A DNA stretch of 60,014 bases, the filler included, from Jimgerdemannia flammicorona (taxonomy: Eukaryota), in NCBI GenBank assembly GCA_003990765.1. It is 3 parts of 3 records of this genome, joined end to end, with 100 filler letters (N's around TTAATTAATTAA, not from the genome) between each part and the next. Parts side by side here need not be neighbours in the genome. Positions count along the whole stretch, not along the records: positions 40,078 to 60,014 come from RBNJ01001800.1; 2 more parts are not named here. One strand, given 5' to 3'. This document shows, piece by piece, positions 20,040-57,200 of this stretch. The notes under the pieces were generated by a model. It worked only from the letters and a program-made list of their open reading frames with translations. It was not told the origin of the DNA and did no database searches. The position numbers were made by a program, and so were the translations under genes. How positions within the stretch are numbered: position 1 is the stretch's first letter; each line of letters opens with the position of its first letter.

Positions 20040-22569
20040 CCCAAAGATTTTGGAACTGTTGAGGACTCATTGGGGAAATTTATAGAGTGAAGAAAAAGGA
20101 GGTAAGGATGCCCTGAACATTAAACAGTAGCTGGAGGACTGGTACCCAGATCCAGTATTGGGCCTGGAGATGCTGGAACATCTGATGTAGGGAGAGGAAG
20201 TATACAAGGTCTTGGCTGCAACAAGCAAGGGGACAGCTCCAGGAGAGGATGGGCTCCCCTGGGATTTTTTGGAAGAAAATGGTTAGGGTGGAGGTAGTAT
20301 TAGAGGAGATGACAGTAATGTATGGTGAGGTCCTTTGGTCTGGAACTTAGATTGGGGACCAGCACCTAGGGCTGGTCTCCCTGCTCTATAAGAATAAGAG
20401 AAGAAGAGAAGATTGAAAGAACTAGTGACCAATCATACTCCTTGATATAGACTGCAAGATAGTGACAAATATCTTGGTGACTAGATTGCAGAGTATAGCT
20501 CAGCAGGTATTAGGAGTGAAGCAGAGGGGATTTGTTAGAGATTGGTTGATCCAAGATAGAACTGCCTGGGTTTATAAGATGATTGAAGAGACTCAAGCAG
20601 CTGGAATTGATGATCAGTTAGTATTTCTGGATCAGGAGAAGGCCTATGATAGAGTGAGGAGAGTCTGGCTGGAAGGAGTACTGAAATATGTGGGAGTTCC
20701 CCAAGCATTCAGGAGGTCATTAATCAGTCTTTTGGAGAACAGTCAAGTAGCATTGGTGGTGAATAGGCATAGAGGGGTGGCTTTTCCACTGGGTTATGGG
20801 GTGCCGCAAGGGGATCCTTTGTCACCCATCCTATATGTCCTTTCCTTGAAACCCCTATTGGACAGGATTCAGTATTTAATTGGGGGTTTGGACATTTTGG
20901 AGATTAATTGGAAGGTTGGGGCTTTTGTAGATAATATGATAGTTGGACTAGATTTATTAATGGATGTAGAGGAATTAAGGAGGACTGTGGAATGGTATGA
21001 GAGGGGCTCTGGTGCTCGACTCAACTGGTACAAGTGTGAGATCCTAGTGCTAGATGGTAGAATTGTTGGTGGCAATGTGATTGGAACAGTGGTTCCAGCA
21101 GAAGAACTGGTCTGATACTTGAGAATATACTTCTTGGTATATGGGTCCCTTCTATCCTGTACATGGTGGAAACAGCAACTACTAGTATGGGAGAATACTC
21201 TTTTGAGGTGGGGTGGTTGGCATATATTCTTGGCAGGAAGGGTGACAGTGCTGAATATGTGTTGGCTACTAAAGCTGTGATATGTAGGGTATCATCTGGA
21301 CTTTTTAGCATGAGTGGTTGGGTGTCTTCTAAAGATGACAAGATCTTGGATTTGGGCTGAGCAGTGAAGTCAGATAGGCTGAGAGGTTCTGACCCTATCT
21401 GTTGACAGAGGCAGGCTGGGCTTAGTGGATTTTCCAAGTATCTATACTGTCTGAGAGCTTGGTGGCTAAAAAGGGGCAAGTGAGTTAAGAGGTTGAGAGT
21501 GGGTACCACTTATACAGAGGGTGTGAGAAGTCTGTTACTCTTCTTATAGAGTGACTGGTGATCTGCTTGTGATGGTAGCCATGGATGAGAGTAGGAGGAT
21601 ATGTTACAAAGGCTTTTGGTGGGAAGTAGTGGATAGTGTAAGAAGAATTGAACTTCAGTGGAGGGATAATGAGGGGGAGGAGGGCTGGGGACCAAGGATG
21701 TAGAGATAGGACTGGCTACTGCTGGGAGATATATTGGTGGAGGACTTTTAGCTTGGTGATGGAATGAAATATATGCAGAGACTCAGGGGTGATATGTGGT
21801 CTAAAGCATGGCAGAGGGTGGAGATTGGCAAGGAGTAGGATTGAAATGGTATTTGGCCTTGGAGTAAGCAGGTGATACACTGGCTTCCCCCCAAGTTCTG
21901 AGTAGTATGGTGGAGGTTCCTAAGGCAAAATGTGATACTGAACTACCAGTCAGGGCACTTGGTAGTAGATGGCATATTTGAGTGTGAGGAGTACATAGAT
22001 ATTAGCCAGGAGGGGGGAGTGGTGCAAATGCCTGAACATTGGCTAGGAGAGTGTGAAGTTTTGGAAGAGCTTTGACACAGTATTTCTAGCAGGCTGGGAT
22101 TGCAGCCCCTGGTGGAGGGGGAAGGAGGGAGATGGGAGGACCACCAGAGAAGGTTAGTGGGTGGGGTGGGAGATAAATGGTTGATCTTGGGTTGGGCCCT
22201 GGTAATTTGGATAGGATTAGCTAGTCATTGGCTTCATGTCTTTAAGGAGGGCCAGTAGGTTGTAATTGAAGTTAAAGTAGTACATTGAGAATGGTTAATA
22301 CTAGACATTTTGAATGGCTAGTAGAGAGGGTAGGACTCAGGTGGGGGGGGGCCATTGGAATCTGGTGAATTGTATTTGTAAAAAGAGTGGCAGGAGAGTT
22401 CAGATGGTTAGTGGCTGAGTTGTTCTTTAGTAGAGAGAGATAGTAAGTAGAGAGAGAGATCCAAGGGACATTGGCTAAGAGATTGTAGGTACATATATTG
22501 TATTATTTATAGATTGAGTAGTAATAAATGGAGGTCTAAGTAACTATAAAAAAAAAATAAAAAAAAAAA
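20040..22569 (+). mobile_element. LINE 3' part (RT, Cys/His motif, poly(A)) inserted into the 5' LTR of the Gypsy element; 5' part lost at contig edge
   Basis: ORF 20462-21115 has FLDQEKAYDRV, GVPQGDPLSPILY and FVDN; poly(A) 22546-22569 abuts LTR sequence equivalent to ~36720. Confidence 0.92.
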
Positions 22570-27199: not shown

Positions 27200-30100
27200 A
27201 TGAACAGTACAACTAAGATATTCTCGCTGAACGTCAATAGGTTATGGGGGGCAGCTAGGAGGAAGCATATTTTTGGATGGCTTAAGGGACTGGATGCAGA
27301 CCTCTTCTTGTTACAGGATGTTCATTATGAGGTAGATGTGGACTTGCAGGATTGGACTAGGGAATGGGGGGGCATGGCAGTATGGAGGGGGAAAGTGTGT
27401 ATTCTCATTCAGAAAGGGATAGAGGACATTGAGAACATTGGACATTGGGGGTCTAGGGTGGTGTGGGGAAGGTGGAATAGGCCTGGATGGGGTTTGTTGA
27501 TGGTTGGGTCTTGTTACTGCCCAGCAGAGAGAGGGGAGAGGGTGGATTAGATTTGTGGATTGAAGGAGGCTGGTGTATTGGGGGAAGTTGGGCTGGACTG
27601 TATGGGGGGTGACTTCAACATGGTTCAGGATAAGGAGATGGATAGAACAGATAGTGGGAGAGGCATGTGAGGCAAAAGTGATGGGTTGGGTGACTGGTTA
27701 GAGATAGAGAGGTTGTGTTCATTAGTGGACTTGGGAAGATATTTTTGGACTGAGTGGCGGGTGTATACCCACTGGGCGGCAGGACTGGGCTCCAGGATTG
27801 ACTGGGTTCTGACTGCAGAGTGTTGGGGTACAGATGTCTGGTCTGCACTGGAAGTAGTATGGTATCCGTGGTCTGATCACTGGGGGATGTGTGGAGGGGG
27901 GAGGTTTGGGGGAAATGAGGATGGGCCTGGACATTGGCAGCTAAATTCTTCATTGTTGGAGGATAGGGCATTGTGGGAGGGCTGGAAGATAGAGGTGGTG
28001 GGAAATATCAGCAGGTGGCAGGAACAGGGCCTTGGGATTGCAGACCGCTAGAGATGACTGAAGGCAAATACTCAGGGGTATTGGCAAGAGGCTGGGAAAG
28101 AAAAGTGTGCCCAGCATAGGCAGAGAGAGCGGTGGGCCTCACAGCGCCTGGCTGCACTCATAGAAAGATGGGCAGGAGTGCTGGAGGATGGGGACATGTC
28201 TGATTGGTGTATCACTCGAATCCGGTAGGAGATAGAAGAGCTTAAAGGGGTTTTGCAAAGGGAGGAGGAGGTGCAGATGCAAGGAATGGTGGCCAGACTG
28301 CGGTGGTAGGGGCTGGAGGAGGGGGAGAGACCTACTAGGTTTTTGTCAAGATTGTTACAAGCACAACGAATGAAACAGCGGTGGGAGGGGGTTCTGGATG
28401 AGGAGAGAGAGCTGGCGGAGGGGACTCCAGCAATTCTGAGCCTATTGCAAACCCAGTGGGGGAATCTATGGAGTGAAGAGGAGGATGGAATGGATGCTTT
28501 AGACATTGACCGACAGCTGGGGGATTGGCACCCAGACCTTGCAATGGGACTTGGGGCATTGGGGGACCCGGTGAGTGGTGGGGAGATTTGCAGGATTGTG
28601 GCCTCGACAACTAAGGGGACAGCCCCAGGAGAGGATGGACTTCTCTGGGATTTTTGGCAGAAGATGACTGGGGTGGGGGAAGTGCTAGAGGAGATGACTG
28701 CTATGTGTGATGGGGTTCTTCAGTCTGGTGCTTGGATTGGGGGACAGCGACTAGGGCTAGTTTCCTTGCTCTACAAGAACAAGGGAAGGCAAGAGGATTG
28801 GAAGAACTGGCGGCCAATTATGCTTCTCGACATGGACCACAAACTGGTGATGAAGATCCTGGTGGGGAGGCTGTAAGAAATCACTCAGCAGGTGCTTGGT
28901 GTGGAGCAGCGTGGGTTTGTCGGTGGTTGGCTGATTCGAGATGGGACAGCTTGGGTTCATGGAGTGATTGAAGGTGCCCGGGCGACAGGGGTAGATGGTA
29001 GATTGGTATTTTTGGACTAGGAGAAGGCCTATGATCGAGTGTGGAGGATATGGCTGGAGGGAGTGCTGAAACAGATTGGCATTCCCCCAGGGTTTCATGG
29101 ATCTTTGATCGGCCTCCTAGAGGACAGTCAGGCAGCACTGGTCATTAATAGCCACAGGGGGGAGACCTTCCCCCTGGGGCGTGGGGTACCGCAAGGGGAC
29201 CCGATGTCACCCATTTTGTATGACCTTTCTCTGGAGCCCCTACTGGATAGAATTCGGCGGCGGATTGGGGGTTTGGACATTCTCAGGGTTAATTGGAAGG
29301 TGGGGGCCTTTGCTGATGATATGGTGGTTGGGCTGGGCTCCTTGGCGGATGGAGGGGAGTTACAGAGATCTGTGGAATGGTATGAGAGGGGTTCTGGTGC
29401 TAAACTTAACTGGCACAAATGCGAGATGCTAGTGCTGGGAGCTGGCATTGTTGGCGGCAATGTCATTGAGACAGTGGTGCTGGTGGGGGAACCAGTGCGT
29501 TACTTGGGGATCTACTTTTCAATGTTCGGTTCTCTTCTTCCCTGGGCTTGGTGGGACCATCAGCTTCTGGAGTGGAGAAATGTTCTATTGCATTGGAGAG
29601 GCCAGCACATGTCTCTAGCCAGAAGGGTAATGGTGCTGAACATGTATTGGATACCTAAGCTATGGTATGTTGGATATCACTTGGATTTCCCAGCCTGGGT
29701 GATCAAAGGGCTGTTGAAGATGGTGAGATCATGGATCTGGGGAGGGCGGTGCAGCCAGGTTGGTTGGGAGGTGCTCACACTGCCCTTGGAAAGAGGTGGG
29801 CTGGGCTTGGTGGATTTTACTAAGTGGCTTCTTTGTCTGCGAGCTTGGTGGTTGCAAAGGGCAAGCGAGCTTCGGGGTCAGGAGCAGGTACCACTCATGC
29901 AGAGGTTGTGGGAGGTTAGGTACTCCCCACGTGGTGACTCGGGCGACCTGCTTGCAATGGTGGCCATAGAAGGGAGCAGGAGGATGTGGTTTACAGGCTT
30001 CTGGTGGGGGGTGGTGGATGGCGCCAAGAAAATTGGACTTTGCTGGTGAGGTGATGAAGTTGAGGAGGATTGGGGACCGGAGATGTGGCAGTGGGACAGG

Positions 30101-31679: not shown

Positions 31680-34600
31680 CATCAAGTTCACAGGCCAAGT
31701 CCACAGACAGAATGTCAATGTCTTGCTTGATAGTGGTGCTACTAGAAACTACATCAGCACCAAGACTGCTAAGAGAATTGGAGCCTGAAGCAGACCAACC
31801 ACTAAGAAAAGAAGTGTTACCTTTAGTGATGGAAAAACTACACCATTGACCAAGATCTGCGAAGATCTTTTACTCAAGATTGGCAAATATCAAGAGAAGT
31901 TAGACTTCAGCATTGTAGACCTTCCAGGACAAGACATTATCTTAGGAAAAGCCTGGTTGACCCAGCACAACCCAGATATCAACTGGAGAACCAATGAGGT
32001 TAACCTGACCCATGAAGGCAGAAAGATCACTCTGATACCCCAGGAAGATACCAACCACCAAGGAATCAAAATCATCTCTGCCATTCAAATGAAGAGACTC
32101 TCTCAAAAAAAAAGGGAAATACCTACTTCATCTGTATAGTACAAGAAGTTACTGAAGCTACAAGTAGCTCAATCTCAACAGAAGCTCAAGAACTGTTTGA
32201 AGAATTCCAAGATGTATTTCAGGACCCCCAAGGACTTCCACCCAAGTGCCAAATCCAACATGGAATTGATCTTATTCCAGAATCTGAATCCCTATACAAG
32301 AGTATCTACCAACTGGTCCAACCCAAGCTCAAGACTCTCAAAGATGAATTGACCAAACTACTGGCCCAAGGATACATTGAACCCAGCCACTCTCCATTTG
32401 GAGCCCCCATTCTATTTGTCAAGAAGAAGGATGGCTCTCTGTGAATGTGTATTGACTACAGAGCCCTCAACAAGATCACCATCAAGAACCAGTATGCCTT
32501 GCCTAGGATTGACGAGTTGCTACACCAAATCTTCAAGGCCAAGACCTTTTCTCTACTGGACTTGTGAAATGGCTACCACCAGATTCTCATTGATGAGAAG
32601 GACATTGAAAAGACAGCTTTCTGAACATGGTTTGGACACTACCAGTTCCGAGTCATGCCTTTTGGATTGACCAATGCACCAGCAATATTCTAGTATCTGA
32701 TGAATGATATCTTTGGACCACCCCTCAACATCTGTATCCTTGTGTATATTGACAATATACTAATCTACAGTGAGACAGTAGAGCTACACTACACCCACCT
32801 CAGACAAGTACTAACCCTCCTGCAAGAACACCAGCTCTATGCCAAGATGAGCAAATGCAAGTTCTATTAAGACTAGATTGAATATCTAGGACACATCATC
32901 TCTGCTGAAGGTATCAATGTGGACCCCCAAAAGGTATCAGCCCTTAAGGATATCCCTATCCCTACTACCCTTAAGCTACTCCAGTACTTTCTGGGTATTG
33001 CTGATTATTACCAAAGGTTTATCTAAGGATACTCTACTATTATAGCTCTATTAATCAGCCTGGCCCGCAAGGGAGTAAACATCAAAGCTGAATGGACCCC
33101 CGAATGCACCCTGGCTATAGACTATCTCAAGAGACTCCTTACTGAGGCCCCAGTGCTAATTGCACCTGACCTTATCAGACCATTCACTCTGACCACAGAT
33201 GCCTCTGACATTGCTATTGGAGCAGTACTCAGCCAAGAAGACCACCCAGTAGCCTACCTTTCCTAAAAGCTCAAGCCAGCTGAGACCCGGTATACCACCC
33301 ATGAGAAGGAACTCCTGGCTATTGTCACTGCACTCCAGGAATGGCACCATTTCCTCCTAGGATAGCTATTTGTGGTCTACACTGATTACCATGCACTGCA
33401 GTATATTCACACATAGCCCATGCTGACCCACAGACAAGCCTTCTGGATGGAAATCATTGCCAACTTTGATATGGAAATCAAGTATATCCCAGGCAAAACC
33501 AACCATGTGGCTGATAGTTTCTCCAGGTATATGGAAGATGAACTTGTCTTCATGGTCAAAGTAATTGGAGACCTGACCCAGATGATCAAGAATGGCTATC
33601 AGCAAGACAGCCCCCTGATGAAATTCCTTCATTTCTGCCAAGACCCAGAGGCCGAGGTTCTAGAACCCATGAGGCAAATGGCCAAGAGATTCACTTACCA
33701 TGATAGACTTATCTACAGGGACTATGATAGAGTGGTTGTATCCAACAATGATGCTCTGCGACTCAAGATCATGCAGGAACTCCATGATACTCCTGCAGCA
33801 GGACACTTTGGTTTCGAAAAGACCTACAACCTTCTCTCAAGAGAGTTTTACTGGCCCAAAATGACCAAGGACATCAAAGACTTTGTAGCCTCATGCGAGA
33901 TGTGCCAAAGGTTCAAAAGTGGTAACAAGCTACCAGCTGGACTCCTGCAACCCTTGCCTATCCTGAGCCACAACTGGGATCAGATTGCAATGGACTTCAT
34001 TGTCCAACTCCCCAAGACCAAGGCAGGATGGGATGCCATTGTGGTATTTGTAGACCGCCTAAGTAAACAAGCCCATTTTGCACCCACCAAGACCACTGCT
34101 ATAGCACCAGAGATTGCTGAGATTTTTCTCAATCAAGTATTCAGGCTACATAGCATGCCTAGTACTATTGTATCTGATCGAGATATCAAGTTCACAAGCA
34201 ACTTCTGGAAGGCATTCTTCTCTCTCTATGGAACTAAGCTGAAGTTCTCTACTGCCTATCACCCTCAGACTGACGGTCAAACCAAGCGATCAACAGGACT
34301 CTCAAACAGATGCTTAGCATCTTCTGCTGTTACAAGCAAAATGATTGGGATAAGTATCTAGCCCATGCTGAGTTTGCCTACAATAATAGTCAGCAAACCT
34401 CCACAAAGAAGACTCCATTCTTCCTGAACCATGGTCAACACCCAAGAACCCCAAGTACTACTGCAAAATCAGCAGTCCCAGCAGCCCAAGACCTGGCCAA
34501 GACTATTTCTGACCTTATGCGAATGACAAGAGATGCCCTCATAGAAGTACAAGACTACCAGACCAAGTATGTGAACTTGAAGTGAAGAGAAGTCTCCTAT

Positions 34601-45590: not shown

Positions 45591-46373
45591 AGGTTAAGAC
45601 TAGAAGTCCTTCTTATATAGATTCTTATAGCTCTTCTAATATCTTGGAATATTCTTTTTTAGACTGAGGAGCCTTAGTGGTTTCTGGACCTTGAGGTTTA
45701 GTAGACAGCAGGTATTTTGTTTATAGTGAGTCTTTGAACTATTTTGAGATTTTGTGAGTTTTGTTTGAGTTGCTATTGCTGTAGTTTCTTAGTCTTTCTT
45801 TTATATTTCTTGAGATGTCTATCTTGTAGTTATAATGACTCATGGTTGGTCATTATTGCTCATCTTATAGCCTGGATAAGTCATGCTGTATGATCTTCTT
45901 GTACTGATCTGGTAGCTTATAAGGAAAGACTGTCTTCTGTAATAATATTACCATTCTGAGATCACTGTTACAGTAGAAAAAGTAAAGCTGAGGTTACAAT
46001 ATACTCAGTATAGAGAGTATTTATATATATTCAAAACTATAACTAAATATAGTATACTGAGTATGTCTATATGTATATAGTTATACTACTTTGGATAACT
46101 ATAACTACTAGTTGGAAATTTCAGAGACTTGTAATGATTCATTACACTATTAAGATATAAAAATTTTATTATAACTAAATAAATATATCTTATTATTAAT
46201 ATCTCAAAATATATAAAATTCAAGCTGATAAAAATATTATTAAAATTTAAACACAGTTATATATAATAGACAAAAAATAAACAAAATACAAAAACAAAAA
46301 CTAAAGAACACATATTATAGCATAAGTGGTAAACTGCAATATATTCAGAGTTTGAAAATATCATCTTTGAATC

Positions 46374-47516
46374 CTACACTAAATTTCCTAGATATTTTGC
46401 CAAATGCACCATATCTACGAACTTGTACTCAGACGTTTCCTTGAACCTGACGAGCCCATCATTACCATTTGTCCAACATAGTTCTCCTAGCTGTCCACGG
46501 AACTCGCCCGTCATGGCTTTAACGTTTTCGTGCTTTCTGGGTTGCACGGGTTCAAGATGGTCCCAGCTGATGCTCTCCAGCACCGAGAGCCGCCCTCCCA
46601 GTAGCTGCACGCAGCACGTGCGTCGTGAGCTATCCACCCGCAACACCTGCCCTGTGTGCCTGTCGTGTACGCCACCCTTGTAAGGATTCCCTGTACGCCG
46701 GTGTCGGATCACGCGAACTTCGAAATTTCGCATTGGCCAGTTTACCATCGCTTTTTTTTTTTTTTTTTTTTTTTGTTGGATTGCGTGAAACAGATCGTCA
46801 GGTTCCCATATGGGTAATTACAAACGATTCATTAAATACAATAAGAAACACCTACTTCTCTGTAGAGAATGGGTTGACACCGACAGGGGTTCTGGAGTTG
46901 CAAGCATGAGCGTTGGCAAATCATGAGTACCAGATGTTGCTGAATTAACCCTAGCTAATCGAGCTTCCCTATTGTCATTTTTACCGTCGTTTTTCTTCCA
47001 CATACCTTTGCTACTATAAAAAATAAAAATAAAAATAACAGAACAAAAAATACATCAGCACATAATCCACATAACTAAAAAATAAAAAATAGTTCCATTT
47101 TCCATCATTACATATCCAACTCCCCCACCTCCAATAATTTCCTACACTGGTGTGCCAGCATATATCCAAATATTCCACACCTCAACTGTTGACCCGCCGT
47201 ACTTAGAACTACTCCTATCTCTCCACTCTGAGGTCCCATCAGATACATACAAACTGGATATGTTCGAGCTAGCTGTATCACTGCCAGATGAATTATGCGC
47301 ACTAGTACTGGTGGCACTGTCACCGTCACCATGTATATTGTCGCATTTGGCTGCGAAATTGAGATCGAGAACACGACCTTGCAGTCGCTGTCCATCCATC
47401 TTTGTTATGGCCCACACAGCACTCTCAACTGACTGGAAGATAAGAAATGCGTAGCTGGATGGTGTAGTACAGAGGTATTATAAAAATATGGCAAAATTTA
47501 CAGAGAGAAGGTAGAA

Positions 47517-47571
<55 letters not shown>

Positions 47572-50010
47572 ATACCTCTTGCGCATGCCGATCTTATCGT
47601 CCGTTGGTAAATAATAATATACAATATCTCCGAATTCATTAAAAACGTCTTTAATCTCTTTCCAGGTCATCACTGGATTTATATCTCTAACAATGATTGT
47701 GTCACTCATATCATTGAGTGTCTTTGCTCGGACTGATCTGATGGCGAGTTTTTCTCTGACAAGGGCAAGTGCAGCCCGTGCACCTTCTGGCTTGAGAAAC
47801 CCGAAGCAGACGTTGCTGGAAGGAAGAGGGTGAAAAGTGAAGATGAGGACTCCATCATTATATCAATTATCAATGGACAAATACCTGTGCCCGGAGGGCG
47901 ACGTACCCAGTTCCTGAATCGAATCAAATAAATAATACATACCCAGCTAGCTTGTGTGTGAATTTGTCCTTAATAACATGCATACGGACGATCTCTCCGC
48001 ATGGCTGAAAAATTGCACTCACCGTATCAACATCCAAGCTGAACAACCCACTGATTAGAATTAGATTTCGATCATTGGCAGGAGAGCTACCAATAGAAGA
48101 ACTAGCAGCCGCACTCGGTAATGAGATAGAAGAAAAAGTATGAACATCAGGAGAAGAGGAAAAGGAGGGTTCAATTGTTTGGTATGGTCCGTTACTCATG
48201 ATGTTTGACACGTTTGACTGCCTCCTCAACTTCTCCAAATATTCTTGAACTTGGACAAGTTCGTCGTCTGGCGCACGATGACGTGCAGCTTCCAAAGTAT
48301 ACGATCGCAAGATTATAGAGTTGTGAGGTTGGTGTAAAGTATTCAGTGAGTTACCGTCAATCAAGATAGAGTTATATTGCGTATAGAGCAGTGGAGAATT
48401 GTTAAGGTGACGCCAAAGCATCCTTAAATCTTTGCAAGTTTGCGTGTCCGACCAATATTCGTCAGCTGGTGATTTAAGTTTTGATTTGTCGAATATGCCT
48501 CTCAACTTGCTTTTCTGCTCTCCAAATAGTAGATCAATCATAGGTTCGATCTTTTCCTCCGTCTCCAAACTCCACACGCACACGTGGAAGTTCTCCAGTA
48601 GATATCGGATGAAGGTGCGGGCGTGCGGACGAGGGTAAAATATTTGCTGTTTCAGATTGGATCCCCTTGCTATCAAGCATCCATTCAAATCACAAATAAC
48701 TAACTGGGTTTTAGATGGTTCGATGAATTGAGATGTCAACTCGCAACCATGGAGATAATCTTCTGTCGGTGGAGGATGCGGAGGTTTGGAGATGCCGTAA
48801 ACTTGTAGCGTTGTGGGAGTTGTGCATCTTGTCATGTTTGTCTTGGAAATTTGATCAAACAAGGCCTCTGTCCAATTTTTCTGTGAAGTTGTTTTCGCTT
48901 TTTTGATTGTTGACTCGGCGATCTCTTCTCCTCCATTGTTCTCAGAAAGTGCTTGTGGTGACGTTATCGATCGCTTTTGAGCGCTGAAGACCTTGGTTGC
49001 AGTTTTAATCTTGACGATCAGCGTCTCTCTGGTGTGTGAAGTTGCCTTATTGGTGTTGATGCTCTCGGAAGGGGTGACACCATACTCAGAGGTGAAATCG
49101 GAAAGATCTTGAGATACCAATGTATGTGGTTGCACAGAGCCCATCAGCTGATATTCTGTGGTTACCATGGTATCTGATGGTAATGTCATAAATATATCGG
49201 AGTTTCCATTCATATAAAAGCATAAATCCACATTTATGTAATTTAAAACCTTTATAACTTACTTTCATGAATTGCGGATGGTTGAGATGTAGCTGTTTCC
49301 GAAACCAGTGTGTCTGATTCGGTGGAAGAGGTGCTAGAACCTTCTCCTGTACTCTATAAAGAATGAAATGGTCATTAGCTTTTCTGAAAACTGTACAGAA
49401 ATTTCAACAATATGTGAGATCTATTCTCTTTTCTCCTTGTATCCCCCCCCCCCAACACACACACATTCAACACCCTTCCTCGCATGTCATACCAGAATTA
49501 CGAATAAATTATGCCATACCGTTGAAGTAAACCCTGAACTATGAAGCTGATCGTCATTTAATAGACGTTGCACCATGTCAGGTTTGCGATCTTTCCCATC
49601 TACAGGCAAACTTCGAGCGCAGAGAAGAGCAGCCAGATTGGCCTTCGTCGTATGTACATAGGGATTCTTGGCTATGTCATAGTCTACCAGTCTTTGCGCC
49701 AACTTGTCCTTGCTATCGCTTTGGTCTACTTGAAGTCGCCTCTCCGCACAAAGTTGAAAGAGTTCGTGGAAGCTCTTCCTTTTGTAAGTGCTTTTGGATT
49801 TTGCGCTATGGCAGAAAAAGAGGTGAGGCAACAATACATGAGTAGAGATATCACAGGCTCCAAATAGGTTTTGTTGTCATATCTGTTCTGACAGTTCCGT
49901 TCACGTCGCCATTCACGTCGCCATTCCCACCATCTTACATACAAGTTGTAAGTCTTCCTCATAGTATCCCTTGCCTGATATGGGTGTACTCACTTGGATG
50001 GGTACTCCAT
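46374..50010 (-). CDS. 8-exon gene, ~883 aa: 2x SAP-like, FCP1/NIF-type HAD domain, 2x RRM, Spt5 C-terminal-type tandem KOW
   Basis: Phase-consistent GT-AG exons 50010-49994, 49805-49520, 49353-49263, 49173-47943, 47815-47576, 47454-47203, 47013-46856, 46750-46374 (2652 nt). Motifs: ELFQLCAERRL..SKDKLAQRL and NLAALLCARSL..RKPDMVQRL; LVICDLNGCL, YPRPHARTF, CVWS, KDLRMLW, SILID; LILISGL..AGNVCFGF; IIVRDI..KSYAFLIF..MDGQRLQGRVL; HLEPVQPRKHENVKAMTGEFRGQLGEL..DGLV..LAK. An alternative first exon from ATG 49962 is also phase-compatible. Confidence 0.8.
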
Positions 50011-51146
50011 CCTTTCCTTTCCGACTCGGTAGTTTTGCAAGAGGTAAGGGTACAAAACGTGGCAAAAAGAAAACAAAGTTAGACAGTCACATACGTCATC
50101 GGTCTTTACGTTTCCGGGAGCTGCGGAATTATTCAGACGTATATACCTTGGATGACCTTTGCTTTTTCGCAGCTCTGCCTTTTGTTACCGCTGGCGGTTG
50201 CAAAGTATTCCGTATGTTAAAGCAATTATACGAGGGATCTTTCGTAGCGAATAAATAAATGCACGGTACATTTAATTCTCCATATTCACCGAATTGTAGA
50301 ACCGACAATATATATACCTACTTAACAGTCACCTGTGCGTGTAGAAACGATATGGAAGAAACCGGGGGGGGGGGGTAGGTGAGTTTACGGTCCAAAGACA
50401 ATGTTCAAATTTGGAAGTACTATCCATGTTTTGGGTCTTTCACTGCTTCAGACACCACGAATCATTCATCAATTCACGTTCCATTCCACCTTCGGCAGAA
50501 ATAAGTACTTGCGATACCCACCGAAACCTCTCTTAAAGTCAACCGATAGATTTTTCAGTAAGCGTATACCAGTTATACAATTGGGTTTCCAATAAAAACG
50601 TAGTCGCTCCAAAAACTAAGTAAAGGTGATTAAATTGGAGAATTAATTTTTGCACCAGGTGAAAAAGTAAACAATATCGTCTACATCGGTCGGGATGGCT
50701 TGAGTCGGACTTGAATGGACAATATAGGCATTTCCCGGTATCCCAAAAGGCAGCTCCATCCAGCAAAGGCCGGAGAATGTGTATACGTGTCAACAAAAAG
50801 GATGGTCTGTCCCTCTAGGCGAATCCTCGATTCTACAATATTTACCATCATTTTATATTGTCATTTCCTCCATCGCTTGATCATCATATACCGGCGTTTT
50901 GGGACCAGGATTACTAAGCCAATTAGGGTGACGTGTTTCATTTCGACCCTTTTACGACATGAAAAGTTTCTTTGTGAAGGAAATAGGGGACTTTGCTAAC
51001 CGCCGAGTGCTGCGAATTCGATTACATGGCGCATCAGTTGATATCAGACGTGCCTAAATCTCAGATGCCTACAAATAAATGCGTCACTGGTTGACAAACA
51101 CTCAGCCGCAGCAGATAAAGAAAAACTCTCTTTATTCTTTTTTCTC

Positions 51147-51242
51147 TTTCCCACCTTTCACCCAAACACATATCCCGCTATCCCGCCTTTCATCCAAACA
51201 CATATCCCGCTTTCCCACCTTTCATCCAAACACATATCCCGC
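51147..51242 (+). repeat. 3 x 32-bp tandem repeat immediately upstream of the ZNFX1-like ATG
   Basis: t(t/a)tccc(a/g)cctttca(c/t)ccaaacacatatcccgc at 51147, 51179 and 51211; ATG at 51244. Confidence 0.95.
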
Positions 51243-51243
51243 T

Positions 51244-54200
51244 ATGAATCACAATCAGAATAACCGTGGTCGAGGGAATTTTAGGGGCGGAGGTGCTGGG
51301 CGCGGAGGCCGAGGCAGAGGACAGAACACAAACCAAACCCCGGGTGGTCCTGCGAGGCAAGCAAGACCGAGCGGAATCACTCCAGAGCAGAAACGGCAAA
51401 TTGTGGAGCGACGGCAGGAGTCCATTCAAATTTCCAGTGACGGGACAGACGACCTAATTGTGGCCGAAAACGGATCGGAAGATATCCAGCAGCTGGCATT
51501 CGTGACACTGGGGCGCAACTCGCGCGCGTTCGAGCACCAACACCGCATGCGCCGCTTCGTCAACTCGTGCCTCGTCAACTTGTCCAACCATCACGACGTC
51601 GACACCTCTGGCTTGCTCATCGGCCTTGTTTCCGGCCCGGGCGTCGCGCGCATGAACGACATCATGCTCCAGCCCATGTCTGTCGACGCCGGATTACGAA
51701 AATGGCCTGTTTCGTTCCAGTACGTCGTGCTGCCTTTCGTCGGCGTGCTCACCAGGGAAAAGGTATGCCAGACGAACATGGTCCAGCAGGCAAACACCAT
51801 CTACACGGCCGTCTACGTGCATGCGGAACAATTCTTGCTGAAGGGCGTTCTCAGATGTATGCAGGAATTGATGGACAGGCAATCACTGCGTGATTACAAC
51901 GTCTCTCCCGAACAAATGCGCGCCGAGGACGCTGGCGCATGCACAGTCACAACTTTTCCGCACGCTCTCCTCGCCATCACCCGCCTCGTATTCCAGCTTC
52001 TCACACGAGTACGTGACGCAAAGTTTGAAGATCATTTCACGTCTATCGTGGACCAACTCCTTCACCTTGCTACCCGATGCCCTCAGATGCCTCCCGACAC
52101 TGCCGGCCGCGCATTCGAGCGCGATATTCTCAACCGTGAAATAGAACGCATCAACGCCATCATCTTGGATGCCAAGGGTCTGACGCTCCCCGCAGCGCCT
52201 GATTCTATAATCAAACGAAAGCCACCCGGGACAACAGCCAACATCGAATTCCTCGAGCGTAACTTCGACCCTCCAGGCGACTTCTCCCCAGACGGCCCGC
52301 GTCACGACAACGACCAGCCAAACATCGCTGACATCCAGGTAATCCCAACGCAGGCGGAGGTGACATGCAAACGGACGCCGTTCCTGCCGGCGAACGGGGT
52401 TCCTGACGCGCCGCACTTCATCGAGCCGGGATGGAAGCGGCAGCTGGACATCCACTTCCGGCTGTTCCGCGAGGACATGCTCGACCCACTGCGTAAGGGC
52501 ATTTTGGCGTTCTTACGGCTGCTCGAGCAAATGACGGGGGAAACGCGCATGGCGCTCTCGCAGCAAGGCCGATTGCGTCACATGGTAGACGAGAACGTGG
52601 ATCTGAACGTGTACTGTGACGTGCACTTCCACGGCCTCAGATTAACCAAACAACAGCGTGTGTCTGTCGAGATCTCATTCGCACAGCCAAAGTCATCCAC
52701 CGCACGAACGGCGGATCAGCGTAAGGAGTTTTGGGAGCGCTCCAAGAATCGCCTGATGCAGGGCGGGCTCATCTGCTTGGTGTGGAAGGACACCAGGGGC
52801 CGCACCGAGACAGCTACCGTTGCGCCGCTACGCATGATATTTGGCATCATCATCGACCGCGATGTTCGGCAACTGGCTGTGAATCAGGATCACGCCATCA
52901 TAACCATCGCGTTGACTGACCCGTCTGTCTACCTGCTGATGCTCGAAGCTGCCGAACAGGGGGGCGGACAGGACGTTGAGCATTTCATGGTCGAGTCGCC
53001 GGGGGTCTTCTTTGAATCCTATCGCCCCATCCTCAAGGCTTTGCAGCAGTGCACGCCGGTTACGTTGCCATTCGGGAGATATTTGGCTCCGACTGCAGCT
53101 GACGTCGTGGGGCCGAATAATCGCGAAGATTTTGTCGAACCACCATTGTACACGAGAGCGCCCGGGTTCGCTTTCGATCTGTCGGTTATACTCGAGCCTG
53201 GACAGGCTTACAACCTAGTGACCACGGACAAGGCATCAAGAGCATTGGCGGTTACCATGTTACAGCAACATAGTACGTTGGATGATACGCAGGCGAGAGC
53301 GTTGGTGGAGACTTTATGTAGAGAGGTTGCTTTGATTAAAGGGTAAATAACAGTGTTTCGCTTCAGCGTAATTCTTCTGGATTAGGTGATTCGCAAAAAA
53401 GCAATGTATCCACATTTATTAATGAACATTTTACATTTTTCCTCCAGGCCTCCAGGAACAGGCAAAACCAAGATCGGCATCGACCTCATGCGGGTATTCC
53501 TCCACAACGCCAATAAAATGCAATGTGGACCCATCCTCTGCATCTGTTACACGAACCACGCTCTCGACCAGTTCCTAGAGCACTTACTCGACCAAAACGT
53601 GAAGAGCATTGTGCGTGTGGGAGCACAATCCAAGTCCGAGCGGCTGCAGGACCACAATTTGGAGCAACTTATGCGGTCGCAGGCGCGGTCGTTTGACACG
53701 CGACAAGCCATTTACGAAGGCAGAACGAAATGGGATCAGGTGTCTAAAAACCTGCTAGACATCGACAAGTCGCTCCAAACTGGTACCCTCCCCTGGAAAT
53801 ACCTCGGTCCTTACCTGATGGATTACTGGTACGATCATTATCGAAATATCAACAATGAGAACGCGTTCGAGGCGGAATTTGAGGATGAGGATGATGGCGG
53901 AGGTGCATTCCAGACAGTCGGAGCGAAGAATGAGGATGGACCTTACCATCGCTGGATTTCGGGGAGCGATATCAAACGGAGGCAGGAGTATCTCGAATAT
54001 TTGCGGAAACAGAAGAAAAAGGCGCGTAAAGAACGGAAGGCGAACATTAACAGGTACGCAGAGTTGGGCCTGGACGCGGATTTGAACGGAAATTACTCCT
54101 CAATGCGACAGCAATCTCCCGAAGACATCGCGGCGCAGGCAATCCATATTCCGAAGACAAACCGACCACTCGTCTTACTGGAAGTGGACGGGAACGTGTG

Positions 54201-57200
54201 GAACATGTCGCTCGAAGAGCGCAGGCGACTCAGCGATTCGTGGAAGCGGCCTGTGCAAGAGAATATGCTGGACGAGCTGAAGCGATTGCTGGAGGAATCG
54301 GAGAAGATTGAACAAAACATAAAGAATGCATACGACGAGATGCGCCGCGTTATCCTCAAGAAGAGCACCGTCATTGGCATGACCACCAACGGCGCCGCAA
54401 AGTACCAGACCCTTGTGAGCTCCGTCGCCCCTAGGATCATTGTTTGTGAGGAGGCGGGGGAAGTACTAGAGTCCCATATCCTCGCTACACTGTCGTCGTC
54501 TACACAGCACTTGATCTTGATCGGAGACCACCAACAATTGAGACCGCATGTCGCGACCTACAATCTATCGGCCGACTCGCACGTCGGAAGAAATTACAAT
54601 CTCGATAAGAGTCTGTTTGAGCGCTTGGTGACGGCCCCCGTTAACACACTTCCAATGTCGATTCTCACGACACAAAGGTACGCATTTTCCTGGGTTTTAA
54701 CATATAAATACTATATTCTGTCTATTCCTTAACATAATACTCATTTAATTTCTAGGCGTATGCGACCCGAGATTGCAAATCTCATACGAAACACACTTTA
54801 TCCTGATCTTGTCGACGGCGGTTCTGCTTTGACCCACCCACCTGTCGGTGGGATGAAGAAGAATCTATACTTTATGGACCACAACCATCCCGAAGATAGC
54901 AAGGACCAGTTTGGAATGCAGTCGTACTCTAACACGTTCGAGGTTCGGATGATAGAGGCTCTAGTGAAATATCTAATCCGGAATGGATACAACAAACACG
55001 GCGATATCGCCGTTCTGACGCCGTACTTAGGCCAGCTTGCGAAGCTCCGTAAGGTTTTGATGAATAGCTTTGTCCTGGTTATTGATGAGAGAGATCAGGA
55101 GCAACTTGAAAATATGGATTTGTTAACTGCTGAGAACGAGGAGGCGGAGCGTGTCGAGCAGAATGTCGTCAAAGGCATGGTGCAGAAAACGCCGTTGCAA
55201 AAACAGGTGACGCTTCGAACGATTGACAATTATCAGGTATGTGTCTCGTAACAAATGTTTAGATTTACTAGTAGAGAGGATCATATCGTTATTCAGAAAA
55301 ACCTTATTATCACATTTCATGTATAGGGGGAAGAAGCCAAAATCATTATCATTTCCCTAGTACGTAACCTTCGAACGCAAGATGGCGCTGGCAAGGGCAT
55401 AGGATTTTTGAAGTCCCCGAACCGGACCAACGTCCTTCTCTCCAGAGCCCAACATGGCATGTTCTTGCTCGGTAACGCTAACCTGCTTGCTAGGAACGAA
55501 GCGGGCATATGGCCCAAGATTATCGACCAACTTCGAGAGACAGATTGCGTCGGTCCGGGGTTCCCAATTCTGTGCCAGAAACATCCCGACACGCAGAACA
55601 TTATTGACACCCCCGAAATGTTTAGGCTAATGGCGCCGCATGGTGGGTGCAACTTGCCGTGTAGCTACAACATGGATTGCGGTCACGTTTGTCCTTGTCA
55701 GTGTAAGTATTCACATTCCCCGTTCATTTTTGTATACATGAGCTGCAGAATTTACCGAATTGCGCGTTAATTCTCTCAGGTCACTCTGATGACGAGAGGC
55801 ATGTCATGGTCACGTGCCCGCAACCTTGTCCTCGACTCCATCGTATTTGCAATCACGCATGCCCCAAACGGTGCGGTGACGACTGCGGTTCTTGCAAAGA
55901 GATTGTAGGCGATATTTTCCTGCAATGCAGCCATATATTCCGTCAACCCGAGTGTTGGCAGGCAAGAAATCCCTCCCAGATCGCCTGCAAGGAGCGCGTC
56001 GAACGGGTCATGCTTGGCTGCGAGCATAGCACAACCATGGCCTGCTCCGACGACATCAAGAACGTCCGTTGCAAAAAACAATGCGGCGTCGTACTCCCGT
56101 GCGGACACCCGTGCAAGCGCCAATGCCACGAATGCCAGGTTGAAACCAATGCTCGGTCCAAGGCCCAGGCAAATGCCAAGGACGTTGTCATCAAGGTGCC
56201 GCGCACCTCCCACGGTGCTTGCCGCCAGGTGTGCGACAAGGCGTTGTTCTGTGGCCACTCGTGCGCCAACGCGTGCCACCCAAACAAGGACTGCCAGCCG
56301 TGCCAAAAAGAGTGCGTTACGAGGTGTGTGCACTTCACGTGCCAGAGGCCGTGCAGCGATACGTGTCCCGCCTGCTGCGAGACTTGTCCATGGCAGTGCT
56401 CGCATCAGGGAAGGTGCTTGCTGCCATGCGGGGCGCCGTGCAATCGGTTGCCTTGCAACAAGCGGTGCGATAAGCTTCTCGGATGTGGTCATAGGTGCCC
56501 GTTGGTGTGCGGCGAAGTTTGTCCCTTGGAAAAGTTCTGCGTTGTCTGTGCTGATGACGCTACGAAGGATATGATCGTTGACGTAGTCATGCAGCAAACT
56601 TTGCGCGAAGTGAATGTAGATGAGGACCCGCTGTTGATCTTGTCTTGTGGTCACGCGTTGACTATGTCCAGTTTGGATGGTATTATGGAAATGAATCAAT
56701 TCTACGTCGTATCCAACCCCATGGCAGAGACACCGGAGTTCACTGCCTGTCAGGAAGTGCCAGGGGAAGAGGTGAAGCAGCAAGCGTGTTTTCTTTGTCG
56801 AAAGCCCATTGTGGAGTTGCGTCGTTACGGGAGACGTATTAAGTATGCACAGTTAAGTGTCAGGTCGAAGAAATATATAAAGGCGCAACAGGGCAAGATC
56901 AAAGTCGTCAGAACCGATTTGCGCGGAGTACAAGCAGAACTGGAAAAATCAGCTCCCCAGTTTCACGTGTGGATATCCAAAAACATGAGTACACGCCCCA
57001 TTGGTCAGCCAGGCGCCAGTACCGACAGGAGTGCAGACCCCGTGAGTGAGCCAAACGTCAGTACCCGACTATTGCGATCCCTTCCCGCAAACAAGCTCGT
57101 CTTGCCCGTCGAATATTTCCAGCAGATCATGAAAATATACAGCATTCCAAAAGAACAGGCAGATCGCTGGACAAAGCACGTCAAAACAGTCCTTAATTGC

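Follow-up and report, generated by a model that had tools for sequence, protein, structure and literature searches.

A spliced gene of Jimgerdemannia flammicorona joins SAP, NIF and RRM domains to a KOW6-KOW7 tandem of the Spt5 type

Does the minus strand at positions 46374-50010 of the Jimgerdemannia flammicorona DNA analysed here encode a single protein built from SAP units, an FCP1/SCP-type HAD domain (NIF), RRMs and the last two KOW domains of Spt5, or do unrelated open reading frames (ORFs) lie side by side there by chance? The window, i.e. the whole stretch of 60,014 nucleotides, contains a multi-exon gene at this place. A first reading of the sequence alone had proposed a fusion of about 883 amino acids (aa) in eight exons. 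Our data indicate that the locus does encode a spliced in-frame fusion rather than a chance adjacency of ORFs, as that reading held, and we are highly confident that both the gene structure and the SAP-NIF-RRM-KOW fusion are real. The exon count and the length had to be corrected. Exons 1-6 are those of the public gene model P0001 and the in-frame link to the KOW exon stands; nine coding exons joined give 2490 nt, i.e. 829 codons and a single terminal stop, with all introns being GT-AG. The parts follow each other in the order of two SAP units, a disordered linker, NIF, RRM1, RRM2, a linker encoded by an 8-nt and a 36-nt exon, and KOW6-7.

The evidence for the exon joints comes from two runs, X1 and X2, which are filed under one shared organism label; they and a soil metatranscriptome, X3, were placed on positions 45900-50400. 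The share of sampled words was 0.55 for X1, 0.26 for X2 and 0.05 for X3. The type label of X1 and X2 is a guessed "RNA?", and since their contigs are spliced they derive from cDNA. They are assembled contigs and not reads, each having one depth figure, and a ranking of isoforms from the X1 and X2 depths is weak for this reason. The features of the gene, including its exons in the 5' untranslated region (UTR), are as follows, in the order of transcription.

end at 50522, minus strand: farther-upstream 5'UTR exon, preceding the 11-nt microexon
50322-50332, minus strand: 11-nt 5'UTR microexon; acceptor CACAG, donor GTAGGT; X2 joint 50190>50332 with 8 letters between
50147-50190, minus strand: 5'UTR exon; acceptor CCAG, donor GTATAT; X1 joint 50024>50147 (CT..AC), loose end of X1 at 50190
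49994-50024, minus strand: start-codon exon; ATG at 50010-50008, joint 49805>49994, start identical in P0001
49520-49805, minus strand: coding exon 2, a pair of SAP-like units of the helix-loop-helix kind (aa ~16-52 and ~58-93); joints on both sides
49263-49353, minus strand: coding exon 3, Ser/Thr-rich linker of 91 nt; joints 49173>49263 and 49353>49520, CT..AC
47943-49173, minus strand: coding exon 4, disordered region, NIF domain and N-terminal half of RRM1; Pfam NIF match at 48209-48700
48674-48691, minus strand: HAD motif I DLNGCL, read from the sequence
47576-47815, minus strand: coding exon 5, second half of RRM1 followed by the first half of RRM2; joint 47815>47943
47251-47454, minus strand: coding exon 6, second half of RRM2 and a tail rich in Ser; its donor at 47250 is GTATGT
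47006-47013, minus strand: 8-nt coding microexon TAGCAAAG; acceptor TTATAG, donor GTATGT
46856-46891, minus strand: 36-nt coding exon; acceptor CTCCAG, donor GTAGGT
46374-46750, minus strand: last coding exon, Spt5-type KOW6-KOW7 tandem; stop codon at 46376-46374, covered by X1 records 1 and 3

One X1 contig (record 3, 2215 nt) carries most of this structure. It aligns in the pieces 49727-49520, 49173-47943, 47815-47581, 47456-47251 and 46742-46554, with gaps of 91, 3 and 52 letters between pieces. The gap of 91 (record positions 209-299) is exactly exon 3 (49353-49263), the gap of 3 is the remainder of exon 5 minus an ambiguous AG, and the gap of 52 is the sum of the microexon, the small exon and the masked start of the last exon (8 + 36 + 8 nt). 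Five clean CT..AC joints, i.e. GT-AG on the minus strand, were found in X1. Two homopolymers, given here on the coding strand, lie in introns 5 and 8, namely about 60 T at 47506-47580 and about 25 A at 46751-46775 abutting the last acceptor, and both were masked as repeats when the contigs were placed. The acceptor of the last exon is thus preceded by an A-run and not by a pyrimidine tract.

The link between exon 6 and the KOW exon is the critical one, and here the cDNA contigs departed from the sequence-only reading. Its donor for exon 6 at about 47203, needed for the 883 aa, is replaced by a donor at 47251, supported by the record 3 piece 47251-47456 and by the joint 46893>47251 in both X1 and X2. 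Its single 158-nt exon 7 gives way to the 8-nt microexon at 47013-47006 and the 36-nt exon at 46891-46856; no Pfam match was found in the stretch 46857-47012 that it had taken for this exon. The joint 47251>46893 holds six extra letters, which together with the next two aligned bases read TAGCAAAG on the minus strand, and this string occurs once in the skipped interval 46894-47250, at 47013-47006. The joint was observed at a depth of 49.4 in X1 and at 40.2 in X2, there as two sequence variants (20.8 and 19.5), while the X2 contigs diverge from the window by a few percent. In the bin 46806-46956, X1 covers 38 bases, which fits the 36-nt exon plus two ambiguous bases. Intron 6 has a depth of 0-2.6 in X1 compared with 49.4 for the spliced contig. 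A break of the transcript at introns 6-7 had been named as the sign of separate genes; spliced contigs cross this region and favour the fusion. The earlier observation that introns interrupt both RNP1 motifs also stands, in the sequence as well as in P0001: one intron falls after ...KLAG at 47943 and another within RK|S|YAFLIF at 47576/47454.

At the 5' end, the joints 50024>50147 and 50190>50332 and the loose end indicate at least three 5'UTR exons. The spliced leader has an in-frame stop 35 codons upstream of the ATG at 50010 and no intervening ATG, which rules out a longer N-terminus, and hence this start codon stands. The 3'UTR extends to 46261 or beyond. One X1 contig stops at 46305 in 19 loose A's on the plus strand. 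A convergent plus-strand transcript may be polyadenylated here, or the A's may be an artefact of local A-rich DNA. X2 has the alternative joints 49796>49878 and 49796>49994, with six extra letters each, and 49151>49272 with 22 unlike letters; these reflect either differing 5' exons or diverged sequence in the relative. X3 gave one 216-nt contig on 48354-48569 at a depth of 2.6, too little to interpret. No further copies of the locus were found within the window by blastn or tblastn.

The public annotation misses the KOW part because of the microexons. P0001 ([quoted passage not shown], 725 aa, 100% identical) was the one hit among 3675 candidates in a word-indexed search of longer proteins with the NIF exon. 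It agrees with exons 1-6 but, missing the coding microexon, continues into intron 6 and so ends early at the stop at 47142; Pfam recognises only SAP, NIF and RRM_1 in it. The microexons of this gene (11 nt in the 5'UTR, 8 nt coding) suggest that other protein models of the J. flammicorona genome may be truncated in the same way.

We scanned six exon pieces against Pfam and five of them gave matches. The sequence-only reading had likened the C-terminus to KOW6-7 of Spt5, and this is borne out in the last exon: the piece 46377-46817 matches KOW7_SPT5 (PF23287) with E 1.9e-12 and 47.2 bits against a cut-off of 27.1, and human SPT5 KOW6-7 is matched at 4.6e-8, both by the structures 5ohq and 6er0 (E ~5e-8) and in the full-length protein at 1012-1085. 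GPKOW_C was aligned with the last exon over 3-107 of its 107 positions with E 1.5e-8 and 35 bits, under its cut-off of 65 bits. The assignment of KOW6 comes from this end-to-end sub-threshold alignment together with an identity of 71% to P0002. A structure prediction of the KOW exon from a two-row alignment (A2) had a mean predicted local distance difference test score (pLDDT) of 32.7 and is unusable for a tandem barrel.

P0002 is a protein of 260 aa from another isolate of J. flammicorona, the single match among 86 candidates in a search of longer proteins with the last exon, and contains GPKOW_C and KOW7_SPT5. In its sequence the KOW tandem comes after TP repeats rich in proline, and a profile of A2 aligns its residues 28-256 with 874-1086 of human SPT5; on these grounds we take it to be a C-terminal fragment of Spt5. 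The last exon of our gene is 71% identical to it over 120 aa, with the similarity starting three residues past the acceptor, and for this reason the KOW exon looks like a duplicated SPT5 3' exon that was captured by a SAP-NIF-RRM gene. Its GC content is 0.53, compared with 0.43-0.47 for the other exons. The orthologous X2 contig (record 6) differs from the window at 5 of 196 bases, and in each run a further KOW-like contig is more distant from it (records 2 and 5, differing at 15 of 193 and 21 of 194 bases). These diverged contigs (window 46383-46579) part from the window just past the stop codon, with loose ends at 46387 and 46383, and probably represent either another copy or the 3' end of the true SPT5. 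The orthologous and paralogous contigs of X2 overlap in the KOW exon. A scan of metagenomes with this exon gave 124 pattern matches and no relative by tblastn. An origin by retroposition was rejected, as the A-run precedes the exon on the coding strand instead of following it.

According to a figure legend in PMC6076269, the part of Spt5 that follows KOW5 occurs in metazoans and plants only. P0002, an Spt5 fragment of the Mucoromycota, has repeats resembling the C-terminal repeat region (CTR), i.e. the TP repeats, as well as KOW6-7, in contrast to this legend. In the same paper no binding of human KOW6-7 to nucleic acids or to Rpb4/7 was found, and it is proposed to recruit protein factors.

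The other end of the protein is less clear in its first unit. The second of the two SAP units that had been proposed is at the threshold of Pfam (PF02037, E 4.2e-5, 23.5 bits against a cut-off of 23.9, piece 49520-49804), and the first gave no Pfam match. An AlphaFold model of P0001, made from a 49-row alignment (A1), predicts helix pairs at 18-27/38-52 and 60-69/80-93 with pLDDT 74-91; the first unit, with helices 18-27 and 38-52 at a pLDDT of ~91, is seen in this model only. The claim of two RRMs holds fully for the second. RRM_1 was matched in halves, by the N-terminal half with 4.5e-6 at aa 40-74 of the piece 47578-47814 and by the C-terminal half with 0.0083 on the piece 47145-47453, and in P0001 RRM2 (PF00076, aa 582-651) scores 65.1 bits against a cut-off of 20.7, the score of RRM1 being below it. 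By these scores RRM1 appears degenerate and RRM2 canonical. One phmmer match, P0013, aligns over aa 516-649 of P0001.

The piece 47945-49171 matches NIF (PF03031) with E 8.9e-17 and 61.7 bits against a cut-off of 21.8, and the core at aa 260-470 was predicted by AlphaFold with pLDDT above 90. The NIF domain had been called FCP1-like, which holds for the family, whereas the fold is nearer to UBLCP1, SCP and TIM50 than to FCP1 itself. The best folds by Foldseek are UBLCP1, Scp1-3, TIM50 and CTDNEP1 (E 3e-9 to 3e-8), FCP1 structures appear only at ranks 30-32 (E ~1e-4, template-modelling score ~0.27), and the sole PDB sequence match of the NIF part is UBLCP1 with E 3.8e-4. No BRCT domain was matched in P0001 at E up to 0.1.

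Motif I is DLNGCL, as had been read at 48691-48674. It retains the nucleophile Asp, has Asn in place of the Asp two positions on and Cys in place of Thr, and thus departs from the DxDxT of active phosphatases. The Ser of motif II and the Lys of motif III are retained, and so is the first Asp of motif IV, of which the second position is Gly compared with Asp in at least 90% of the related sequences. An exhaustive phmmer search with P0001 against 1.84 billion representatives gave 2896 matches at E <=1e-3, of which we examined the best 150 including P0001 itself. D-[LM]-N-G is present in 132 of the 149 others, DLHG in one and DxDxT in none; the other 16 comprise nine proteins with several RRMs, P0026 and six NIF matches whose motif escaped the pattern. 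The absence of the second Asp, correctly noted before as a DLNG variant, is hence a trait of the DLNG clade at large rather than a lesion private to this copy. We aligned 135 NIF segments with MAFFT; they were chosen by D-[LM]-N-G, which biases the set for motif I. Our protein agrees with the clade at 31 of the 45 columns conserved at >=80% in this alignment. Its departures include C where the clade has T in motif I, WSLE for WSSA in motif II and DG for DD in motif IV, so that the J. flammicorona copy shows additional erosion or remodelling of its active site. As a lead only, the ESM Atlas returned NIF-only clusters for the NIF part, auto-named NIF or "putative TIM50" (0.92-0.94). A metagenome scan with the NIF exon gave 278 pattern matches and no relative by tblastn. 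We found no literature under C1271.03c, the name of a fission-yeast member of the clade.

Is this combination of domains found elsewhere? The sequence-only reading had not recognised it from any named protein, and by our searches it is not a common annotated family. Of 8000 candidates scored in a word-indexed search with P0001, the two matches were P0001 itself and one RRM protein. Pfam was run on the best 149 other phmmer matches (threshold E 1e-3 for 18 and 1e-5 for 65, plus 10 within A1 and 56 as A3) and gave nine RRM-only proteins, 138 NIF-only proteins, one protein with a bromodomain and NIF (P0032) and one without a family (P0026). NIF combined with RRM, SAP or KOW was found in none of these best 149 of 2896 matches, and this absence is meaningful because a protein with a clade-type NIF and an RRM should outscore the NIF-only matches. 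We also found nothing in the literature on FCP1 homology, a SAP domain and an RRM together. P0026 (246 aa) is 64% identical to the SAP pair, passes directly into the segment behind RRM2 of P0001, and further on matches the peptide of the 36-nt exon; its gene model has neither NIF nor RRM, so that P0026 may be a paralogue or else a model in which exons were skipped. The lack of both domains points to module shuffling in the lineage. Judged from the sequences, the gene has a new domain architecture made of known parts, occurring as far as seen in one fungal lineage.

What could such a protein do? We think it fairly probable that this chimera, restricted to one lineage, is a nuclear protein docking on the elongation machinery of RNA polymerase II (Pol II), with a NIF domain that is weakened or traps phosphorylated residues. 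SAP domains bind DNA or chromatin, RRMs bind RNA, and the NIF domains of SCP and FCP1 act on phospho-Ser of the C-terminal domain (CTD) of Pol II and on substrates like it. From these domain identities, which also underlie the co-transcriptional chromatin/RNA/Pol II adaptor proposed in the sequence-only reading, we would derive a tentative mechanism, which we regard as possible but less than probable. The protein would act in the nucleus on transcribing Pol II, its SAP units holding chromatin or DNA and its RRMs holding the nascent RNA. KOW6-7 would dock on the same protein partner as the C-terminal KOW6-7 of Spt5, near the RNA exit, and NIF would recognise a phosphorylated Ser/Thr segment, e.g. 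of the Pol II CTD or the Spt5 CTR. Because the general acid/base Asp is lost throughout the clade and the changes of T to C and DD to DG are private, NIF is likelier to trap or simply bind phosphorylated residues, or to turn them over slowly, than to be a fast phosphatase. One may speculate, at rather long odds, that KOW6-7 is an autonomous docking module for a partner on the elongation or termination machinery of Pol II, transplanted onto an unrelated SAP-NIF-RRM body, that the chimera competes with Spt5 at this site or sits beside it, and that the DxNxC NIF is a natural "substrate-trap" reader capturing the phosphorylated CTD or CTR.

Several observations weigh against a docking protein of this kind. 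No orthologue was found outside J. flammicorona in the word-indexed search, among the best phmmer matches or in the metagenome searches, and selection on the gene therefore has no comparative support. The NIF domain deviates at 14 of the 45 clade-conserved columns, which would also fit decay, RRM1 alone reaches 17.7 bits (E 0.0032) against the cut-off of 20.7, and the RRM region of the AlphaFold model has pLDDT 30-56 and is uninformative on RRM1. We found no functional study of the DLNG clade (motif DLNGTL) in the literature, and the partner of Spt5 KOW6-7 is not named in the available part of PMC6076269, which leaves the docking step without an experimental anchor. On the side of the transcript, the public model ends at 47142 in intron 6 without KOW, and a 207-nt X2 contig (record 7) covers intron 6 at a depth of 9.6; some unspliced RNA or DNA thus exists and would encode the 725-aa form. 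The contigs are assembled ones and not single molecules spanning from SAP to KOW.

An alternative hypothesis could be that the gene is a young exon-shuffled chimera in a repeat-rich genome, transcribed and spliced under little or no selection and having no specific role. The absence of homologues with the same architecture (best 149 of 2896 matches; 8000 scored candidates) is what it would expect, and so are the 14 departures among 45 conserved NIF columns, those in the active site included, the degenerate RRM1, the joining of a SAP pair directly to tail segments in P0026, which suggests reshuffling of modules, and the retroelement remains within the window. However, the fusion and its microexon are common to the diverged X1 and X2, all frames and splice sites are intact, RRM2 scores 65 bits and the NIF core is still predicted to fold with pLDDT above 90, and we consider this hypothesis unlikely.

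Even less probable to us is a competent Ser/Thr phosphatase in which another residue serves as the general acid, and which the SAP, RRM and KOW parts target to the Pol II CTD or the Spt5 CTR in elongation or termination. The nucleophile Asp, motif II Ser and motif III Lys are all there, active CTD phosphatases, namely Scp1-3 and UBLCP1, are among the nearest folds, and plant CPL1 likewise has an FCP1-homology catalytic domain and RNA-binding motifs (PMC6026497). Yet Asn stands at the second Asp position here and in 132 of the 149 best matches, the Thr of motif I and the second acid of motif IV are lost, and TIM50, a NIF protein that is not an enzyme, fits the fold as well as the phosphatases do. 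On the same side we count two PDB entries of Scp1 mutated at the corresponding residues, by their titles the phosphoryl-intermediate of D206A (3l0b) and the mutant D98A (3l0y).

That the functional product is the 725-aa SAP-NIF-RRM protein, with the KOW exon a dead fragment of an SPT5 duplicate reached by minor or accidental splicing, is improbable in spite of the end of P0001 at 47142, the unspliced X2 contig over intron 6, the A-run in place of a pyrimidine tract at the KOW acceptor and the differing GC content of that exon, since the X1 contig with exons 2-6 continues through spliced joints with intron 6 at 0-2.6 against 49.4, the microexon joint is kept in the diverged X2 at 40.2 against 9.6 unspliced, the frame is preserved across the 8-nt and 36-nt exons, and the 125 KOW codons are free of stops.

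The chimeric docking protein thus remains the reading that we favour, and its significance is potential rather than established, as it comes from a gene of a single lineage. A natural protein with the KOW6-7 tandem but no other part of Spt5, set on a body of modules related to chromatin, RNA and the phosphorylated CTD, offers a handle on the role of KOW6-7, since any binder of its tandem should also be the partner of KOW6-7 in Spt5. The gene also draws attention to a large and apparently unstudied DLNG clade of NIF proteins without the general acid/base Asp, and shows that microexons of 8-11 nt in J. flammicorona defeat automatic annotation and shorten protein models.

In the surroundings of the gene we observed a divergent neighbour on the plus strand at 51079-54732, with a ZNFX1 domain (E 2.5e-6) and an AAA_11/AAA_19 helicase core (E 2.2e-25), which appears by these matches to be an NFX1/ZNFX1-type helicase. 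ORF pieces matching the reverse-transcriptase family RVT_1 and the integrase families Integrase_H2C2 and rve, also on the plus strand, mark retroelement remains at 20429-21112, 29021-30046 and 33417-34358.

Among known systems, the DLNG(T)L clade is the closest to the NIF part, with 30-37% identity over NIF, a predicted fold common to both, and the shared D-L-N-G of motif I, W-S of motif II and K of motif III. Its members are small eukaryotic proteins, 138 of the 139 NIF carriers among the best matches being NIF-only and the other having a bromodomain, whereas the J. flammicorona protein adds two SAP units, two RRMs and KOW6-7 and has changed T to C, SSA to SLE and DD to DG. SCP1-3, UBLCP1, CTDNEP1 and TIM50 are its best Foldseek matches. 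The solved phosphatases of the NIF type carry DxDxT, and our protein differs from those of the SCP/UBLCP1 type in its DxNxC. FCP1 is far worse as a fold match, and its BRCT domain has no match in our protein.

The likeness to Spt5 is confined to the last exon, through KOW7_SPT5, human SPT5 1012-1085 and P0002. By Pfam the protein has no NGN, KOW1-5 or CTR repeats, and its tandem stands behind a NIF-RRM body and not behind a CTR. Spt5-type KOW modules are reused in other proteins as well. GPKOW is one, with GPKOW_C aligned over its full length with the last exon, the differences being a score of 35 bits against the 65-bit cut-off and no G-patch match by Pfam; plant SPT5L/KTF1 is another non-Spt5 protein with Spt5-like KOW modules.

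Plant CPLs have the catalytic DxDxT and are not known to carry SAP or KOW, and their RNA-binding modules are double-stranded-RNA-binding motifs instead of RRMs. The comparison of CPL1 and CPL2 with our protein is one of architecture within the NIF superfamily. In PMC6026497, CPL1 is described as an FCP1-homology catalytic domain with two motifs that bind double-stranded RNA, so that a phosphatase-type FCP1-homology domain and RNA-binding modules are combined in one chain in CPL1/CPL2 as in the J. flammicorona protein. By this analogy of design, plant CPL1 appears to be its nearest analogue.

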